64,000 nt of DNA, taken from a virus (Duplodnaviria; Caudoviricetes). Below, piece after piece: positions 6,967-51,616 of this stretch (positions are counted from its first letter, which is position 1; each line of letters starts with the position of its first letter). Position numbers and translations under genes: made by a program. Below the pieces are notes generated by a model that worked only from the letters and a program-made list of their open reading frames with translations, made no database searches and had not been told where the DNA came from. The stretch lies in IMG/VR virus record IMGVR_UViG_3300029267_004155; one strand, given 5' to 3'.

Positions 6967-7174
6967 AAGGACGTTCTCATGGACCTGCGGATAAGAGAGG
7001 GGCGGCTGCGCGACGTGGCGGCCGCCGTGGCGGAGACGGTTGTCTCCCATTTCGGGGCGGACGAGTGGGAGGGCGCCGACCAGGAGGAGAGGGAGGCCGT
7101 CGTCGACGAGGTGGCGGACAACATTCAGGAGCTGCTCGGCCTGGTGGTCGAGCCGGAATGCGAGGAGACATGAC

Positions 7175-8290
7175 ATGGCGACGGTGACGTGCTACCGGGT
7201 CGAGAGGGACGTGCACGCCTCCCCGTTGGGGGGCATGCTGAGGAAGGGGACCGGCCTGGAGGTCGGTGCCGACTTCGTGAGGGTCGGCGGCCGGGAGATC
7301 GGAGGCGAGCAGGCGGCCTTGTTCGTGGGGAGGCTCCTCGCGAAGACCGACTTCCTGAAGGAGGTGGAGAGGCTGGACGACACGACCCTGGAGGCCGTCT
7401 CCGGGACAAGCGCCGTGTGGCCCGTCCTGGGGTGCCTGAGGGCGGCCGAGAGGTTCGTCGGGGCCGGGACCGGGGCCTGGCTGCCCTCCGACGACAAGCA
7501 GAGGGAGTTCATGGACATCTTCTCCGGGCATATCCCGACCGTGGACGTCCTTGAGGAGCGGGTCGGGTGCCTGGAGAGCCGGGCCGACTCTGACATCGCC
7601 CCGCTCAACCGGTGGCTCAGGGAGCGCGGCTTCACCATCGAGTTGACGGTCGACCCGGGGTCCGAGGGCTTCGCGGTCGCGTCGATCCTGGACGTGCTGT
7701 GCGAGTGGCTGGAGAGGGGGACCCGGAGGACCATCGAGAAGGCCGGGGCCTCCTACGACGCCGTGAGGCTGGATGAGGGTGTGAGCCTGGTCCAGCATCC
7801 GGACCTGCACGACCATCCCGTCGTCCGGATCGCGGCCAAGGGTGGCTACCGCGTCTGCATGACGGTGGCGTCGGGCATGCCGCCGGGGGACTTCGGACTC
7901 CACTCGAAGGTGAGGAGCCTCCGGTTCGCGGACGCCCCGGACTACCGCTACGAGGGCGTCGTCTTCCCGATGGTCTCCTATGACCGGCACGAGGACATCA
8001 GTTTCCTGTGCGGCCTGGTGGTCAGGTCCGGCGGGAAGGGCTGGCACGTGGCCGAGGCGGTTCAGCAGACGAGGTTCCGGATGAACGAGACGGGCGCCAG
8101 GGCCGAGAGCGCGGCGGCCATGAGCTTCAGGTGCTCCGCCGCTGGTGCCGCCCGTCCCCCGTACGTCCTGGACAGGCCCTTCATCCTGTGGATCGAGAGG
8201 GAGGACTTCCCGATCCCGCTGTTCACGGCGGTCTTCGCCGAGGACTCCTGGAAGGACCCGGGCAATCTGGACGACGTGAAGGTGGGGTGA
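7175..8290 (+). CDS. Serpin-like protein
   Basis: C-terminal hinge/RCL pattern QQTRFRMNETGARAESAAA...YVLDRPFILWIE...PLF...DP. Confidence 0.7.
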   Translation: MATVTCYRVERDVHASPLGGMLRKGTGLEVGADFVRVGGREIGGEQAALFVGRLLAKTDFLKEVERLDDTTLEAVSGTSAVWPVLGCLRAAERFVGAGTGAWLPSDDKQREFMDIFSGHIPTVDVLEERVGCLESRADSDIAPLNRWLRERGFTIELTVDPGSEGFAVASILDVLCEWLERGTRRTIEKAGASYDAVRLDEGVSLVQHPDLHDHPVVRIAAKGGYRVCMTVASGMPPGDFGLHSKVRSLRFADAPDYRYEGVVFPMVSYDRHEDISFLCGLVVRSGGKGWHVAEAVQQTRFRMNETGARAESAAAMSFRCSAAGAARPPYVLDRPFILWIEREDFPIPLFTAVFAEDSWKDPGNLDDVKVG

Positions 8291-8293
8291 GTT

Positions 8294-8782
8294 ATGAACT
8301 GCATGGTGCATACCAAATGCAATCCGGGGACCGAGGTCTGGCGTGCGGCCATGGCCAAGGCTCTGGTCGTCGACCGCGAGGAGATGGACGAGGACGACGA
8401 GGATGCTTTCGAGGAGATGAACGAGAGGCTCGACGAGGCCCAGTTCTGTCCTCTTTGCGTCATCGAGCTGGATGATCGGGCCAGGGCTAATCCGTCTTCG
8501 GTCCTCAAGGTCCAGCTGGAGGCTGCCGAGAACGAGCTCAGGCGCCTCAGGGCGACGAGTGAGAAGAACGCCTCCGTCGTGGCCGCGGTGGTTGGCTTCA
8601 TCAAGGAGGCGACGGGCAAGGACGCCTGCGAGATGGCTTCTCAGAGGCACAAGGGTGGCCAGGGAGACCTTGCCAACATCATTCCCAACCTGCTTCACGA
8701 GGCCGTCCTGAAGAGGGTTCAGGACGGCATGGAGAGGTGTCGGGATCGTGAGAGGGCCGACATCTTGAGGGGGCATGGCTGA
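8294..8782 (+). CDS. Hypothetical coiled-coil protein
   Basis: ORF in operon context. Confidence 0.55.
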   Translation: MNCMVHTKCNPGTEVWRAAMAKALVVDREEMDEDDEDAFEEMNERLDEAQFCPLCVIELDDRARANPSSVLKVQLEAAENELRRLRATSEKNASVVAAVVGFIKEATGKDACEMASQRHKGGQGDLANIIPNLLHEAVLKRVQDGMERCRDRERADILRGHG

Positions 8783-9291
8783 TGGTCTCGGAGTGCGGCA
8801 AGTGCGAGAGGGCGGCGACGCACGAGTACGGCCATCCGGCGATCTGCCCCGGCTGCGGGGCGGAGCACATGCCGGACGAGTACCTGTCGGCGGTCTCGGT
8901 CTGGGAGCCGAGCACGATTTCCTGCGTGGAGCTGCCGTACAGCTTGACGAACTGGGGCCGGAGGCGGTTCATGGCGGATGCGTCCGCCATTGGCTATCAG
9001 GGCTTTCTCCTGCACCTTCTGGGCGACGGGGTCGTCACGGTCCCGTGGCTTGTCGAGGAAACCAGGTCCGAGTGGTTAGGCGCGCCTTCCGAGATGGCTA
9101 CGAGCAAGGCCGTCTTCTACCTGCCCTCGGGCCATGTGGCCATGATGATCGACGAGTGCGCGAAGCCGTCGCCGATTGGCCCCGGAATCCCGTTCCCGAT
9201 CACGATGCGGGCCAGGCGGAACGGCATCGACATCGCGGTCTACACCAACATGCAGATGGTCTGGAAGGAGGGGAAGGATGCCGGCGGCTGA
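8782..9291 (+). CDS. Zn-ribbon hypothetical protein
   Basis: CGKC...CPGC; TGATG coupling. Confidence 0.55.
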   Translation: MVSECGKCERAATHEYGHPAICPGCGAEHMPDEYLSAVSVWEPSTISCVELPYSLTNWGRRRFMADASAIGYQGFLLHLLGDGVVTVPWLVEETRSEWLGAPSEMATSKAVFYLPSGHVAMMIDECAKPSPIGPGIPFPITMRARRNGIDIAVYTNMQMVWKEGKDAGG

Positions 9292-9673
9292 CTTCCCATC
9301 TGGCTGGCCGGTCAGATGCCCGGCCTGCGAGGGCACCTTCGCGTTCAGGTACGTCTCGGACCGGACGGGCAACGTCCGCCGGTACAGGTGCCACAAGTGC
9401 GGGGTCGGGTTCCTGGCGACCTGGAAGGGCAAGCCCATCCGGAGTTGTTTAGCGGAGCCGAGGAACACCAGCATGGAGAAGTGGGACTGGGCACGTATAG
9501 TTGAGGGAAGGGAGCTTCCGCCGGCGGGTGCGCTTCCGGTTCGGGATGAGGCGATCGAGGTGGAGGCTGTGGTGGTCGACGTGCCGGAGATGACTGACGG
9601 GACGCCGGCGGCGAAGGAGTTGGTCGAGCTTTACGGTCCGCGGTTGGCGGGCCTCTTGGAGGAGAGGACATGA
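9278..9673 (+). CDS. Zn-ribbon hypothetical protein
   Basis: CPAC...CHKC; RBS. Confidence 0.55.
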   Translation: MPAADFPSGWPVRCPACEGTFAFRYVSDRTGNVRRYRCHKCGVGFLATWKGKPIRSCLAEPRNTSMEKWDWARIVEGRELPPAGALPVRDEAIEVEAVVVDVPEMTDGTPAAKELVELYGPRLAGLLEERT

Positions 9674-10050
9674 GCAAGCTGAGCGAGAGTCTGGCGGCGG
9701 TGCTGGCCGCCGCCAGGGGCGTCGACGAGGAGGCCGAGGCCATCCTGGAGGCCATGGCCTTTCGGGGGTCGGACGTGCTGGAGGCCGTCATGAGGGGGGC
9801 GACGCTTCGCCTGATGGGAGATGGCCAGTCCTTCCCCGCCGCGGAGGCGAACGATTCCGTCCGGTCCTACCAGGTGCTGGTCTTCGACCCGAATGGCGAT
9901 ACTGTCAGGACGGTGGCCGAGGCGGACTCCTGGAAGAGGGGGAGGGAGGGAGATATGTCCTTCTTCCTGAGGGGCCGCAAGGTGGCCTGGTTCGCCCGGG
10001 TGGACCTCTGGCGCGTGATGCCGGAAGAGGACGAAGGGGTGGGGTCATGA
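9670..10050 (+). CDS. Hypothetical protein
   Basis: RBS; ATGA coupling. Confidence 0.55.
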   Translation: MSKLSESLAAVLAAARGVDEEAEAILEAMAFRGSDVLEAVMRGATLRLMGDGQSFPAAEANDSVRSYQVLVFDPNGDTVRTVAEADSWKRGREGDMSFFLRGRKVAWFARVDLWRVMPEEDEGVGS

Positions 10051-36322: not shown

Positions 36323-36352
36323 TTGGCAAGTCGGCGCCCGAGGGTGTATAAT
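36323..36352 (+). promoter_or_regulatory. Sigma70-like promoter of tRNA operon 1
   Basis: TTGGCA-18 nt-TATAAT with extended TG. Confidence 0.7.
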
Positions 36353-36420
36353 GGGATTTTGGACGACGGGTGAGGGTCCTGGCCAATTCCAGGGCTGGAC
36401 CCCACAAACCGAGAGAGACG

Positions 36421-36510
36421 ATGGACAAGCAGAGTCGCAACCTGATGTTGGCATGTTGTGGGCGGGGATATTCCTCGTTCCGCCTTACGCCTGCGTCCGG
36501 GCTGCGTTGA
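36421..36510 (+). CDS. Attenuator leader peptide 1 (MDKQSRNLMLACCGRGYSSFRLTPASGLR)
   Basis: Codons match operon-1 tRNAs; its 3' end contains the antiterminator strand. Confidence 0.8.
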   Translation: MDKQSRNLMLACCGRGYSSFRLTPASGLR

Positions 36511-36562
36511 CGCTCGTCGAAGCCCCTAGGCCCCCGGACGCGAAAGCCTCCGGGGGTTTTTC
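36493..36562 (+). terminator. Attenuator 1 antiterminator/terminator switch
   Basis: GCGTCCGGG (36493-36501) is complementary to terminator 5' arm CCCGGACGC (36533-36541); hairpin + U-tract. Confidence 0.85.
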
Positions 36563-36569
36563 TGTTTCT

Positions 36570-36660
36570 GGAGGGCGACCGGCTGCACGAGGAGCTCGAT
36601 TTGAAATCGGGTAGGCCCTGGAAACGGGGTCTCGGGGTTGGAGTCCCCGGCCCTCCTCCA
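36570..36660 (+). tRNA. tRNA-Ser(UGA), atypical D/T loops
   Basis: Cloverleaf, long variable arm, CCA. Confidence 0.8.
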
Positions 36661-36669
36661 GGATTGAAA

Positions 36670-36754
36670 GGCCCAGTGGCGGAATTGGCATACGCGCCCG
36701 ATTCAAAATCGGGTCCCTTCGGGGATGGGAGTTCGACTCTCCCCTGGGCTACCA
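36670..36754 (+). tRNA. tRNA-Leu(CAA)
   Basis: Cloverleaf, CCA. Confidence 0.92.
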
Positions 36755-36816
36755 GCAACAAATGGAACGAGATAGCGAGTCCGGGATCGAGAGAAGGAGA
36801 TGATCGACGACGAGAT

Positions 36817-36902
36817 GCGTCGGCTGAGCATTTGGCGAGCTCCCCGGTCTGTAAAATCGGCGCCTTCGGGCTTTGATGGTTCGACTCCATCTCGGCGCAC
36901 CA
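36817..36902 (+). tRNA. tRNA-Tyr(GUA)
   Basis: Cloverleaf, variable arm, CCA. Confidence 0.85.
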
Positions 36903-36915
36903 ACAACTGAACAGT

Positions 36916-37002
36916 GGTCCCGTGCCGGAATTGGCATACGGCCCCGGTTGAGGGCCGGGGGCCCGAGAGGGCGTGGGAGTTCGAGTCTCCCCGGGGTCAC
37001 CA
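36916..37002 (+). tRNA. tRNA-Leu(GAG)
   Basis: Cloverleaf, CCA. Confidence 0.9.
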
Positions 37003-37010
37003 GGAATCAT

Positions 37011-37101
37011 GGAGAGCATCCGGCCGGATGAGGAGCGCGTTTCGAAAGCGCGTAGGTCCCGGGAACGGGGCTTCGGAGTTCGAGTCTCCGGCTCTCCGCC
37101 A
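37011..37101 (+). tRNA. tRNA-Ser(CGA)
   Basis: Cloverleaf, long variable arm, GCCA. Confidence 0.85.
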
Positions 37102-37199
37102 AGATGTGGACCGGGGCTTCAAACCTCGGTGCAACCCATTAACGTCTTGTGGGGTATGCAAAGGCGTGACTTCGCCGGGTGGAGAGAACCCGGCAACAA

Positions 37200-37285
37200 G
37201 CCCGGGTGGTGGAATTGGCAGACACGCTGCGCTCAGACCGCAGTGCCGAAAGGCGGTGAGGGTTCGACTCCCTCCTCGGGCACCA
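37200..37285 (+). tRNA. tRNA-Leu(CAG)
   Basis: Cloverleaf, CCA. Confidence 0.92.
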
Positions 37286-37294
37286 GATTTAGAC

Positions 37295-37371
37295 GCAGTG
37301 GTAGCTCAGCCAGGTAGAGCTTCCGCCTTCCAAGCGGAAGGTCGCGCGTTCGATTCGCGTCCACTGCACCA
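37295..37371 (+). tRNA. tRNA-Gly(UCC)
   Basis: Cloverleaf, CCA. Confidence 0.9.
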
Positions 37372-37387
37372 TTGATAGGAGGAAGGA

Positions 37388-37564
37388 GTGAGGGCGCCAA
37401 ACTCGGTGATACGCGAGCGACTTGACCGTTGGTGCAAGCCGTGTCGTAAGATGGACGCCAAGGCGATGGTGTGCTTGGTGGAGAGGTGCAACGTCAGACG
37501 AAAGGCGTCGTTGGCAGAAGAGTCGTGCCCGATGGGTTTCTGGGGGAAGTACGAGGAGATTTGA
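37388..37564 (+). CDS. Small Cys-rich protein (DUF6171-like) inside the tRNA array
   Basis: ERLDRWCKPC...C....C...K....SCPMGFW; AGGAGG RBS; below the ORF-track size cutoff. Confidence 0.55.
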   Translation: MRAPNSVIRERLDRWCKPCRKMDAKAMVCLVERCNVRRKASLAEESCPMGFWGKYEEI

Positions 37565-37569
37565 ATAGT

Positions 37570-37660
37570 GGAGAGCGTCCGGATGGACGAGGAGTCGGTT
37601 TGCTAAACCGGTAGGCCCTGGAAACGGGGTTTCGGGGTTCGATTCCCCGGCTCTCCGCCA
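37570..37660 (+). tRNA. tRNA-Ser(GCU)
   Basis: Cloverleaf, long variable arm, GCCA. Confidence 0.87.
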
Positions 37661-37738
37661 AAGATTGTGTCCCGACCGGTGCTCGGGCTTGGCAGCCCGA
37701 CGGGTCCAAACGCCCGGCCAGAACTGGAAGGGACTTTC

Positions 37739-37815
37739 GGTGAGGTAGCTCAGTCCGGTAGAGCACTCGGTTGAAGCCCGAGGCGTCGTTGGTTCGATTC
37801 CGACTCTCACCACCA
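37739..37815 (+). tRNA. tRNA-Phe(GAA)
   Basis: Cloverleaf, CCA. Confidence 0.9.
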
Positions 37816-37820
37816 ATTTG

Positions 37821-37904
37821 GCCCGAGTGGCGGAATGGCAGACGCGGCCGGTTTAAGTTCGGCTGTCGAAAGGCGTGCAGGTTCGATCCCTGTCTCGGGC
37901 ACCA
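37821..37904 (+). tRNA. tRNA-Leu(UAA)
   Basis: Cloverleaf, CCA. Confidence 0.9.
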
Positions 37905-37942
37905 AGGTGTAGCAGTGTAGCAGTGTAGCAAAGGAGATTTTT

Positions 37943-38018
37943 GGCGGGGTGGCTGAGAGGTTTAGGCGCGCGGTTGCAACCCGCGTTCATGAGGGTTCGA
38001 GTCCCTCCCCCGTCTCCA
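37943..38018 (+). tRNA. tRNA-Cys(GCA)
   Basis: Cloverleaf, U73, CCA. Confidence 0.9.
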
Positions 38019-38025
38019 TTTTCGA

Positions 38026-38196
38026 TGAGGCCGTCCACCTAATGGCAAGGGCCGGAGCGGAGCGCCGCATAGCCCGTCGAGGCGCAAGCGCGACGGGTGA
38101 CGCCTGCGAGTCCAAAGGGCTGTGACATGGCCAGCCACGCGGGCTGCGGAATGGGCAGGACGCACCGGGATGCGGGTTCGAGTCCCGTCGGCTTCA
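38026..38196 (+). ncRNA. tRNA-like RNA with ~105-nt structured insert replacing the anticodon loop
   Basis: Acceptor TGAGGCCG/CGGCTTCA, D-like loop TAATGGCAAG, T arm GCGGGTTCGAGTCCCGT. Confidence 0.6.
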
Positions 38197-38204
38197 GACT
38201 TTGA

Positions 38205-38295
38205 GGAGAGCATCCGGCTGCATGAGGAGCGCCGTTGGAAACGGCGTCGGTCCGGGAAACCGGGCTTCGGGGTTGGAGTCCCCGGCTCTCCGCCA
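38205..38295 (+). tRNA. tRNA-Ser(GGA), atypical D/T loops
   Basis: Cloverleaf, GCCA. Confidence 0.82.
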
Positions 38296-38327
38296 GTATG
38301 TTAAGGGCAACCCAAAGGAGGTTGCTG

Positions 38328-38993
38328 ATGAAGATCGAGGGCTGTCGGGTGGCCGCGGCGATGGTCGTCTATCACACCTACGGCCTGATGAGGAAGGCGG
38401 TGGCGTCGGTGAGGAGGTTCTATCCGGACATCGACTTCTTCGTGGTGGACAACACCGAGGGGGTCGCTCCGAGGAACGTCAGGAAATGGGCGAAGAGGAA
38501 CCGGGTGAGGCTTATCCGGGTGGGGTCCAACATCGGCCATGGGCCGGGGATGAACGTGGCGCTGTGGGCGACGGAGGCCGACGTGCTGCTGATGCTGGAC
38601 AGCGATACGGAGATGTACGAGCCGAACTTGCTGGAGGACGCCCTGGCGAAGGTCGGGGGCCGGAAGACCAGGTGGTACGGGATAGGGCCGGTCGCGCCGG
38701 TGAAAAGGCCGGTGGGAGGCGAGAAGGTTTCGTACCTTCATTCGTCGACGTGCCTCTTCCATGTCGGGTACTATCGGCGGTTCGAGCCGTTCACGGACCA
38801 CGGGCTTGCGCTGGTGGCGCCGATGTACGAGCTGAGGGTCAAGAGGATGGAGTCGATGCTGGTGGACTTCCCGGTCCAGGACTACGTGCATCACCTCTGG
38901 AGAGGAACCAGGGACTTTTGCAGGGGCCACCAGCTGGACAGGTCTTACGAAAGCCGGAAGTCGGCCTCCTGGTGGGAGCCTGGGAAGTTTTGA
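38328..38993 (+). CDS. Glycosyltransferase family 2
   Basis: VVDN, NIGHGPGMN, LMLDSD. Confidence 0.85.
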   Translation: MKIEGCRVAAAMVVYHTYGLMRKAVASVRRFYPDIDFFVVDNTEGVAPRNVRKWAKRNRVRLIRVGSNIGHGPGMNVALWATEADVLLMLDSDTEMYEPNLLEDALAKVGGRKTRWYGIGPVAPVKRPVGGEKVSYLHSSTCLFHVGYYRRFEPFTDHGLALVAPMYELRVKRMESMLVDFPVQDYVHHLWRGTRDFCRGHQLDRSYESRKSASWWEPGKF

Positions 38994-38999
38994 TAATGA

Positions 39000-39077
39000 G
39001 CGCCCGTAGCTCAGTCTGAATAGAGCGCCCCGCTACGGACGGGGAAGTCGCAGGTTTGAATCCTGCCGGGCGTGCCA
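39000..39077 (+). tRNA. tRNA-Arg(ACG)
   Basis: Cloverleaf; A19/U56 variant. Confidence 0.88.
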
Positions 39078-39084
39078 ACTTTGA

Positions 39085-39160
39085 GGACCTGTAGTTCAGT
39101 TGGAAGAACATCGGTCTCCGAAGCCGAAGGTCGCGGGTTCGAGTCCCGCCGGGTCCTCCA
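39085..39160 (+). tRNA. tRNA-Arg(CCG)
   Basis: Cloverleaf, CCA. Confidence 0.9.
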
Positions 39161-39167
39161 GAATTAT

Positions 39168-39244
39168 CCGTCTGTAGCTCAGTTGGTTAGAGCGGTCGTC
39201 TCATACGCGACAGGTTGTAGGTTCGATCCCTACCAGACGGACCA
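39168..39244 (+). tRNA. tRNA-Met(CAU), elongator-type
   Basis: Cloverleaf, paired 1-72, CCA. Confidence 0.85.
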
Positions 39245-39347
39245 TCCTCTTTGAAGACGGGCCTCTGGCGGTGTACAATAGGCCAGGAGGTGCGCCGCGA
39301 GGCTTGAGGCGAGGTGACGATCGACGACTACGAGAAGGAGCGGGGCG

Positions 39348-39971
39348 ATGACGGGAGTGCTTGACAGGCGGGTCCTGGTGCTTGACGGCTCGTGGAGGCC
39401 GGTGGACGTGACGAACGTGGTCGGGGCCCTGTGCAAGGTGTGCGCGGGGAAGGCCGACGTCGTCGACAATGACTACTCCCTCTACGGCTTCGAGGAGTGG
39501 GTCGAGAGCTGGTCCGACGCGGCCAGGGCCGCGGAGATGGCCGAGTCGGGGCGCCCCCTCGTGCGTTCCAGGAGCTTCGCCTTCCCGGCGCCGGAGGTCA
39601 TCCGGCTCGTCCGGAAGGTCCGCTTCTGGCGTCGTCGGGCCAAGCTCTGCCGGAAGGCGATCTTCGCCCGCGACCGGAACGTCTGTCAGTACTGCGGCAA
39701 GAAGCTGCCGGCCTCCAAGCTCAACATCGACCACGTGGTCCCCAAGTCCAGGGGTGGAGGCACGACCTGGGAGAACCTGGTTCTCTCGTGCGTGAGGTGC
39801 AACCACAAGAAGGACAGCCGGACGCCCAGGGAGGCGGGCCTGACGCTCCTGAGGGAGCCGAGGGAGCCGCACTGGGCCGTCGTCAACAGGCGTGGCATCC
39901 TGAGGGACCCTCCCAGGTCGTGGGAGGACTTCCTCGGCGCCATGTACTGGGACGTCGAGCTGGAGGGCTGA
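39348..39971 (+). CDS. HNH endonuclease
   Basis: IFARDRNVCQYCG...NIDHVVPKSRGGGTTWENLVLSCVRCNHKK. Confidence 0.93.
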   Translation: MTGVLDRRVLVLDGSWRPVDVTNVVGALCKVCAGKADVVDNDYSLYGFEEWVESWSDAARAAEMAESGRPLVRSRSFAFPAPEVIRLVRKVRFWRRRAKLCRKAIFARDRNVCQYCGKKLPASKLNIDHVVPKSRGGGTTWENLVLSCVRCNHKKDSRTPREAGLTLLREPREPHWAVVNRRGILRDPPRSWEDFLGAMYWDVELEG

Positions 39972-40048
39972 CGGGCCGGTTCTCGGAAAAATCTCCGAGG
40001 GGGCTGGTAAGACTGGCGTTGACGGCGTATGATAATAGGCAAGGAGCA

Positions 40049-40129
40049 ATGTACTCAATGAACCCGATGGCCAGACACGAAGCGATCGAGCAGCCCGCGA
40101 ACGCGGGTGCCGGGGGTGCTGTGTTCTGA
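40049..40129 (+). CDS. Attenuator leader peptide 2 (MYSMNPMARHEAIEQPANAGAGGAVF)
   Basis: AAGGAG RBS; TATGATAAT upstream; codons match operon-2 tRNAs. Confidence 0.82.
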   Translation: MYSMNPMARHEAIEQPANAGAGGAVF

Positions 40130-40186
40130 CCCTGATAGGTCCAAGGACCCCCGGCACCCCGAAAAGGGCGTCGGGGGTTTTTCTTT
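40105..40186 (+). terminator. Attenuator 2 antiterminator/terminator switch
   Basis: GGGTGCCGGGGGT (40105-40117) is a perfect 13-bp complement of ACCCCCGGCACCC (40147-40159); hairpin + U-tract. Confidence 0.9.
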
Positions 40187-43049: not shown

Positions 43050-43078
43050 TTGGCAAATTCGGGCGAGCGGCGTATAAT
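43050..43078 (+). promoter_or_regulatory. Sigma70-like promoter of tRNA operon 3
   Basis: TTGGCA-17 nt-TATAAT. Confidence 0.75.
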
Positions 43079-43102
43079 AAGGCAACGAAAGGCAACTACG
43101 TC

Positions 43103-43186
43103 ATGCTGACGGGAACCACAACGAAAGACAATACCTGGGGCGGCAAGCCCGCCCACGGGGGTCTTTCGCTTGGAGTTCAAGCGTAG
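43103..43186 (+). CDS. Attenuator leader peptide 3 (MLTGTTTKDNTWGGKPAHGGLSLGVQA)
   Basis: GAAAGG RBS; codons match operon-3 tRNAs. Confidence 0.8.
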   Translation: MLTGTTTKDNTWGGKPAHGGLSLGVQA

Positions 43187-43243
43187 ACGGTGGCGAGCGC
43201 GCTGTGAGACCCCCGGCCCGAAAGGGCGCGGGGGTTTTTCTTT
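43156..43243 (+). terminator. Attenuator 3 antiterminator/terminator switch
   Basis: CGGGGGTCT (43156-43164) is complementary to AGACCCCCG (43207-43215); GAAA-loop hairpin + U-tract. Confidence 0.85.
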
Positions 43244-43568: not shown

Positions 43569-43642
43569 GGTTCCGTAGCTTAGAGGTAGAGCGGGCGGCT
43601 CGGACCGCGTGGCCGCAGGTTCGAGCCCTGCCGGGACCTCCA
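43569..43642 (+). tRNA. Aberrant tRNA with 6-nt anticodon loop (CTCGGA; possibly Arg(UCG)-derived)
   Basis: Intact acceptor, D and T arms and CCA; short anticodon loop. Confidence 0.6.
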
Positions 43643-43751: not shown

Positions 43752-43847
43752 GCCGATGTGGTGTAATGGTAGCACACCGGGTAAACCGGAGGTTTTCCTC
43801 GATCAGCGCGCGTAGTCGAGGCGGTTCAAGTCCAGACATCGGCTCCA
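43752..43847 (+). ncRNA. Thr-like tRNA derivative with shortened anticodon arm and extra hairpin
   Basis: GCCGATG/CATCGGC-TCCA acceptor; CCGG-GTAAA-CCGG; inserted CCTCGA...TCGAGG stem. Confidence 0.6.
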
Positions 43848-45625: not shown

Positions 45626-45787
45626 AGGTGTGTAGCTCAGTGGTAGAGCGTCCCGGCTCTTTTTCCGGGAGGACGCAGGTTCGAGCCCTGCCTCACCTGC
45701 CAATCTTGTCTCGACGTAGCTCAGTGGTAGAGCGTCCCGGCTCTTTTTCCGGGAGGACGCAGGTTCGAGCCCTGTCGTTCGAGGCCA
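45626..45787 (+). ncRNA. Two tandem near-identical tRNA-like RNAs with an 8-nt CUCUUUUU loop
   Basis: 59-nt duplication (45632-45690 and 45716-45774); both end in GCCA. Confidence 0.7.
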
Positions 45788-51064: not shown

Positions 51065-51616
51065 ATGCAAAAGAGAGCGATATGGCAGAAGGTCGGGCAC
51101 TGCGTCAAAGGCTCGAGCGACAAGCTGTACGTCGTGGTTGTGATCGAGGGGCCGACGTTGGGCGAGTTCGAGGTCGTGGCCAGGTGGGGCAAGCGGCGGC
51201 TGACCGGTCCCCAGCAGAGCAAGACGTACCACGAGTGTGGCTCTCTCACCGGGGCCTTGTGCGAGGCCGAGAAGCTGTGGAAGAAGAAGGTCGATAAGGG
51301 GTATGTGGACATCGACGCGCCGGGGTACGACGGCCCGATCTACTGGGACTGGCTGCGCGGGACCGACTGGTACACCGCAGGGGCCGAGGGCGCCCGGATC
51401 ATGCGGGGCAGCCAGCCGGCCATGCCGGCCGCCAAGTTGAAGGAGAGGACCTTCGTCGTGGTCTGCGTCAACGCGGGCGGCGTGGAGGACAGGTTCGTCG
51501 AGGGTGAGCAGTACGCGGCCGAGGGGCATTCCGACTCCGAGATGCTGTGGGTCACCGACATGAGGGGCAAGAGGGACGAGTGGTTCATGGAGCGTTTCGA
51601 GCGCCTGTCCGTCTGA
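51065..51616 (+). CDS. WGR-domain protein
   Basis: GSSDKLY...VARWGKR...KKKVDKGY. Confidence 0.75.
   Translation: MQKRAIWQKVGHCVKGSSDKLYVVVVIEGPTLGEFEVVARWGKRRLTGPQQSKTYHECGSLTGALCEAEKLWKKKVDKGYVDIDAPGYDGPIYWDWLRGTDWYTAGAEGARIMRGSQPAMPAAKLKERTFVVVCVNAGGVEDRFVEGEQYAAEGHSDSEMLWVTDMRGKRDEWFMERFERLSV

Follow-up and report, generated by a model that had tools for sequence, protein, structure and literature searches.

Attenuators of amino-acid operons (trpL, hisL, leuL, pheL, and the multi-amino-acid leaders of thr and ilvGMEDA; PMC1183508) feature a short leader ORF, control codons that match the product and precede region II, II:III and III:IV pairings that exclude each other, and an intrinsic terminator. 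The phage unit described here has a similar organization, but would control tRNA genes and not enzymes: for 15 tRNAs (8 amino acids) its leader carries roughly one codon apiece, while theirs carry runs of one to three kinds, the code is split over three parallel units, and the product is the decoding molecule itself. Assignment to the biosynthetic and synthetase attenuator family (trpL, ilvL, pheM) was rejected, as the downstream genes are tRNAs and the codons are dispersed. The pheM leader (pheST) and the trpS2 leader (bioRxiv 10.64898/2026.09.09.750475) likewise read the supply of usable aminoacyl-tRNA and control a translation component; they differ in sensing one amino acid, in having a protein product and in their location on a cellular chromosome. 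Synthetase attenuators respond to tRNA modification defects as well as to starvation (bioRxiv 10.64898/2026.09.09.750475).

The trn operon (L-array) of Anabaena PCC 7120, the best-studied case of an inducible tRNA array, is also long, mobile and adjoined by an HNH-type gene, silent until translation is impaired (PMC8421152, PMC10272220). It differs in being controlled at initiation by a protein repressor, TrcR, in a manner that is not codon-specific; the words attenuation, leader and terminator are absent throughout PMC8421152. T-box riboswitches share the tRNA-sensing terminator/antiterminator switch, but are untranslated, with one specifier codon and a conserved RNA motif; this class was rejected, the leader having no match to the Rfam T-box covariance model. 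As for phage tRNAs, tRNA-Tyr of T5 is reported to counter retron-Eco7 and tRNA-Lys to counter PrrC (PMC11555353), and phage tRNAs are reported to oppose other tRNA-cleaving defences, PARIS included (PMC11464382, PMC10264068). The purpose, replacement of host tRNAs lost in infection, is likely shared by our unit; the T5 case differs, being described as overexpression from a strong promoter, and the abstracts and headings of the three papers mention no demand-driven switch. Why phages carry tRNAs is presented in PMC10264068 as a question open for more than 50 years. In the literature searched, which leaves out most subscription papers, no attenuator of tRNA genes is described.

The window (the whole analysed stretch of 64,000 nucleotides) is part of a large phage-like contig (~298 kb; 298,395 bp) bearing its HNH and GT2 proteins, from a giant, uncultured phage. 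Among the genes checked are those of an NAD ligase, a MoxR/CobT pair, a protein with an intein, and members of PHROG families; a close cultured relative was not found, the best ligase identity being 33%. Cellular homologues of the HNH gene come mostly from Planctomycetota, which is only a hint of the host. About 40 tRNA genes form an array on the + strand, from 36570 to about 45960, organized in blocks headed by leader units, as follows.

36323..36352, + strand: sigma70-type promoter, 11/12 consensus, 18-nt spacer
36369..36404, + strand: 5' hairpin of the leader RNA, predicted fold
36411..36417, + strand: purine-rich Shine-Dalgarno-like site, modest (-3.4 kcal/mol)
36421..36510, + strand: leader ORF, 29 codons and TGA
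36433..36486, + strand: putative sensing zone, codons 5-22, of which block-1 tRNAs read 16/18, at roughly one codon per tRNA
36492..36501, + strand: predicted antiterminator strand (region II), pairing with 36533-36542
36529..36567, + strand: predicted intrinsic terminator (regions III:IV) and T-tract, predicted 3' end about 36563-36564
36570..39244, + strand: tRNA block 1, 15 tRNAs, a GT2 gene and a tRNA-like insert element
40006..40185, + strand: sibling unit 2, heading block 2; leader 40049-40129 (26 codons), 13-bp antiterminator, terminator
43050..43243, + strand: sibling unit 3, heading block 3; promoter, leader 43103-43186 (27 codons), terminator

Unit 1, at 36323-36567, thus combines a sigma70 promoter and an ORF of 29 codons with an antiterminator strand of 10 bp and a terminator, and very probably acts as a ribosome-coupled transcription attenuator, making the block-1 tRNAs on demand. 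The short ORF, with its start codon and modest ribosome-binding site, lies between the promoter and the putatively regulated genes; a predicted intrinsic terminator (III:IV) precedes the first of them; the cognate control codons lie upstream of region II; and the 10-bp II:III helix, which prefers its own arm, is exclusive with III:IV and would be covered by a late ribosome. With these sequence-level features, the unit would behave like a multi-amino-acid leader-peptide attenuator. A freshwater contig from an independent study spans 36378-36588 with zero differences, so this stretch is not an assembly artefact. The position of the -10 box is the same in two related phages, L061 and L063; in L061 a hairpin, judged by eye, is found at the matching leader position. 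The leader region folds better than shuffles (z -3.1), and no Rfam family, T-box included, was found over it at E up to 1. The terminator hairpin, 36529-36558, has a predicted energy of -22.9 kcal/mol, with a T-run at 36557-36561, where the T-tract includes only five T, then C-T-G. It was not called by a strict generic terminator scan, owing to a C-C mismatch; the + strand of the 64 kb has only five such hairpins, and each of the three tRNA blocks is headed by one of them.

Block 1 includes tRNAs for Ser (four), Leu (four), Tyr, Phe, Cys, Gly(UCC), Arg(ACG), Arg(CCG) and Met/Ile(CAU); its Ser(UGA) and Ser(GGA) are detected only with relaxed ARAGORN thresholds. Transcription of block 1 appears to rely on read-through, as tRNA-Ser(UGA) starts 8 nt past the T-run and no sigma70-like promoter was found from the terminator up to 39251. 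For unit 2 a promoter-like site was seen by eye only, the promoter scan making no call.

By standard wobble rules, 21 of the 29 codons of leader 1 are read by block-1 tRNAs, a count that takes in the start codon and assumes that the CAU tRNA at 39168 is an elongator Met and not Ile2 (20/28 without the start). In codons 8-22 the matched ones are 14 of 15, and the sole unmatched one is Ala. Our recount thus agrees with the original prediction. The match is unlikely to occur by chance, when compared with phage codon usage (binomial P 3.6e-5), uniform codons (P 6e-4) or nucleotide shuffles (P 0.002); the other two frames have 10/27 and 9/27 matched codons. The only Gly codons are those of tRNA-Gly(UCC), and Arg is encoded by CGN alone, though AGG makes up 41% of the Arg codons in this phage's genes. 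It had also been claimed that the leader samples the class II (Ser/Leu/Tyr) tRNAs: it does sample the tRNAs of its block, but what is tracked is own-block content and not class II, as Arg and Gly codons are present where the block has them, and Val, Asn and Trp substitute in relatives. Sampling of isoacceptors holds in that all 15 tRNAs read at least one codon, not in that each has its own: Ser(UGA) and Leu(UAA) read only by wobble, on codons common to Ser(CGA) and Leu(CAA). The A/T-ending codons, taken earlier as a mark of a sampling peptide, do indicate the absence of gene-type codon bias, but do not distinguish a sampler from non-coding DNA: GC3, at 19/28, falls below the 88% of genes (P 0.0035) but equals local GC (P 0.33). 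Synonymous conservation with L061 is 13/16, against 67% for the HNH gene, a difference that is not significant (P 0.17). U-ending codons in G34-read boxes are 35/58, against a C/U-ending baseline of 10-19% (HNH genes, three GC-rich phages), and the excess may reflect composition.

Each of the three leaders matches best the block that it heads. The number of codons matched to blocks 1, 2 and 3 is, respectively, 20, 6 and 3 for leader 1; 6, 14 and 4 for leader 2; 7, 6 and 11 for leader 3. The sum of own-block matches, 45/79, compares with 27.9 by tRNA-level and 25.3 by amino-acid-level permutation (0/50,000).

Arrays of related phages were fetched by way of the array's HNH and GT2 genes, and searched by a detector requiring only a terminator and an ORF before tRNAs; as codon content was ignored in detection, the codon match in relatives is out of sample. 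A unit heading a Ser/Leu/Tyr block was detected in five other phages (L061, L063, L067, L075, L033), leader ORF 1 having orthologues in L061 and L063 and equivalent leaders in the other three; units 2 and 3 are also found where contigs extend that far. Runs of consecutive matched codons reach 15 in L075, 14 in L067 and 15 in unit 3 of L063. The leader peptides diverge widely between phages, but their composition follows the block: the L075 block has no Arg but has Val, Asn and Gly(GCC) in addition, and its 15-codon run contains the added residues; the L067 block adds Trp, and its 14-codon run contains a Trp codon. For eight variable amino acids in the six Ser/Leu/Tyr blocks, leader and block concur on presence in 41 of 48 cases (Fisher P 1.3e-6), and the own-block trace is 69 against 59.3 (P 0.006); the phages being related, and block limits having been set by hand, these P values are optimistic and overstate independence. 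Doubtful tRNA calls were likewise removed by hand.

In L063, Arg(ACG) is found in block 2, while Arg(UCU), Val(GAC) and Gly(UCC) lie behind leader 3; accordingly, leader 2 has CGC in place of the AGA of the window and L061, and leader 3 acquires AGA and GTC. Several tRNAs of L063 have changed block, with the codons following them. The last six tRNAs of the leader-3 block may also be served by an extra promoter, at L063 17796-17825. The leader-terminator unit is not universal, as none was detected in the arrays, some of them fragments, of L002/L013, L017, L019, L024, L026, L054, L073 (Rctr197k) and L079. L070, L071, L074 and L080 were dropped as relatives, being cellular or without a tRNA array; the tRNA scan of relatives' loci left out L082. 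A two- or three-codon mini-ORF, located just before or overlapping the start of leader 1, is found in L061 (8119-8127) and L063 (4423-4434) and is absent in the window; its presence suggests re-initiation.

The pairing of the leader with the terminator arm was part of the original prediction, and is confirmed as a 10-bp duplex, with one G-U, between 36492-36501 and 36533-36542. Taken alone, this duplex is no better than codon shuffles (P about 0.10), as expected of an ORF so G-rich. Over eleven units, however, leader tails pair with their own arms at -22.6 kcal/mol, against -17.5 with other arms (0/200,000 permutations), complementarity being kept in differing sequences, which in the window and L075 are unrelated. 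One compensatory pair is found, T-A in the window and L061 being C-G in L063; the four-sequence alignment of units is too gapped for counting pairs. When ten leaders are aligned on the first antiterminator codon, the block match is 74/80 at codons -10 to -3, 8/10 at codon -2 and 2/10 at each of -1, 0 and +1, the latter values being partly forced by the antiterminator pairing itself. The matched run ends, therefore, two codons before the antiterminator, about where a ribosome would begin to cover that strand. In all units the start, the open frame and the stop-to-T-run distance (46-60 nt) are kept. The attenuator interpretation originally proposed is supported by the sibling units, the orthologues, the tracking of codons and the position of the matched run.

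Folding with a masked ribosome, in one setting, gives for leader 1 a terminator probability of about 0.1 with the ribosome at codons 6-20 and of 0.9 or more from codon 23; the result is parameter-dependent, as this equilibrium switch is absent in other settings. When the pairing span is limited, the direction holds for leader 1 at three cut-offs, with variable size (0.78/0.99, 0.00/0.52, 0.00/0.07). Terminator formation is lower with a ribosome in the sensing zone than with a late one in 10/10 units at the first cut-off, and in the majority of units at the remaining cut-offs, the margins being very variable throughout; switching is inconsistent in L067 and in unit 3 of the window. A I:II helix is present in the minimum-energy fold, and the no-ribosome outcome for the terminator ranges from 0.00 to 0.99. 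When the full-length RNA is folded, the terminator prevails in every case, so the switch must be kinetic. These models are consistent with attenuation but are no proof of it.

Leader translation, termination and switching are inferred from these features, and would proceed as follows. A host sigma70 polymerase would start near 36359, and a ribosome would translate the 29-codon leader. With all codons read at normal speed, the ribosome, once beyond codon 22, would cover 36492-36501, the terminator would fold and an RNA of ~205 nt would be released 8 nt before the first tRNA. If a Ser, Leu, Tyr, Phe, Cys, Gly(UCC), Arg(CGN) or Met tRNA were missing or unusable, the ribosome would stall in codons 5-22, leaving the antiterminator strand free to capture the loop-side half of the terminator arm, and transcription would read through into the 15 tRNA genes, whose products would relieve the stall: a negative feedback. 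The block-1 tRNAs are thus probably made only when ribosomes stall for lack of them. Coupling would need host-type transcription within reach of the ribosome, which the sigma70 promoters fit. With about one codon per tRNA, and no runs of single codons, the leader would work as an OR-gate, responding to the severe loss of any one member; single control codons confer low sensitivity per tRNA species (PMC1183508). The trigger is the least certain part of the mechanism. Destruction of tRNAs by host defence nucleases is slightly favoured over poor host pools, missing modifications and starvation, all of which would look alike to the leader.

A general translation-stress sensor, where any slowing of the ribosome (by antibiotics, toxins, starvation or failed initiation) would switch the terminator and the codon match would fine-tune the response, is a variant of the attenuator reading and not an exclusive alternative to it. 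It would be in keeping with the no-ribosome model, which often gives read-through as with a stalled ribosome, so that a general block could activate the genes, with the induction of the Anabaena trn array by general translational stress (PMC8421152) and with the low sensitivity of single codons noted above (PMC1183508). Yet such a sensor, which we regard as unlikely, needs neither an own-block-only match of three leaders nor codons moving with tRNAs.

Protein antiterminators are common in phages, and control could be exerted by one of them, or be replaced by a leaky terminator, the ORF being a relic or coding for a small functional peptide. The short T-tract and a single duplex within chance suit this explanation; peptides diverging freely while their composition follows the block, a codon bias unlike that of the phage's genes, and leader-arm complementarity kept in all eleven units make it very improbable. 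T-boxes sense tRNA without translation, and the leader might similarly be an untranslated RNA binding tRNA directly, as the good folding of the region would allow, or else the ORF might be a small one occurring by chance beside an ordinary terminator; the modest Shine-Dalgarno site is compatible with both. Here too we see hardly any probability left, with the match confined to one reading frame, start, open frame and spacing to the T-run kept in all units, and T-box and other Rfam families absent at the threshold used.

The ribosome-coupled attenuator finds a parallel in a cultured phage. In phiCbK, which infects Caulobacter, a 32-codon ORF (record 51341-51439) precedes an annotated terminator and a Phe/Val/Ile/Gln/Gly block: in its codons 2-18, nine match the own block, against one for the preceding block (P 0.002). 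Moreover gp335, rich in Ser, Leu, Ala, Pro and Lys, precedes a block of those tRNAs. On sequence grounds, phiCbK has the same build of leader unit before tRNA blocks, and provides a ready test system.

Codon compensation predicts steady expression, fitted to phage codon use. A stall-sensing leader, in contrast, would mean that tRNAs are made when decoding fails, which fits the replacement of lost host tRNAs, and would make the purpose of phage tRNAs testable codon by codon. If true, attenuation would reach beyond enzyme genes to tRNA genes, whose product would itself close the loop, and the leaders could act as reporters of tRNA-targeting defences. More broadly, large phages may carry a self-tuning spare set of tRNAs, where the code is split over several attenuators, each sampling one codon per tRNA, sensing when defence nucleases destroy particular host tRNAs, and switching on only the replacement block: a proposal to which we give even chances. 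Were it true, the leader sequences would list the tRNA losses that a phage is built to sense.

Several other elements were observed in and around the arrays. Between blocks 1 and 2 of the window, at 39251-39971, lies an HNH endonuclease gene with its own promoter, whose transcript would continue into leader 2; the gene has the same array position in L007, L061 and L063. A TROVE (Ro60) gene is found within tRNA block 1 of L063, at 7759-9591, with several odd tRNA-like RNAs close by. Outside the array, the phage protein encoded at 7040-8290 of the window matches serpin weakly (E 1.5e-5, short of the Pfam cut-off); a small upstream ORF and a 480-aa protein, used as search queries, gave no matches.

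The four Ser tRNAs of block 1 (36570-36661, 37011-37101, 37570-37660, 38205-38294) share an atypical D-arm and have poor Rfam and ARAGORN scores; the type is also found in L007, L061 and L063, and pattern scans of viral contigs gave 0 and 1 (uninformative) matches. The tRNA-like element of the same block, at 38027-38200, has an alanine-type acceptor stem (G3-U70, A73) and a T-arm, with a ~110-nt insert replacing the anticodon loop, and no Rfam match. In block 3, the gene at 43752-43847 is called Ser(GGA) by ARAGORN, yet its acceptor is of Thr type (U73) and it contains an unusual insert; it was excluded from scoring. tRNA-like genes with six-nucleotide anticodon loops are located at 43569-43642 in the window and, as two near-identical copies, at 9706-9782 and 13075-13151 in L061. 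In L075, L067 and L002, tRNAs with an amber anticodon (CUA) are called close to the arrays, outside the attenuated blocks. Finally, two tandem tRNA-like genes of the window, at 45626-45702 and 45709-45787, have identical, T-rich anticodon loops of eight nucleotides, and are possible frameshift readers or nuclease decoys.
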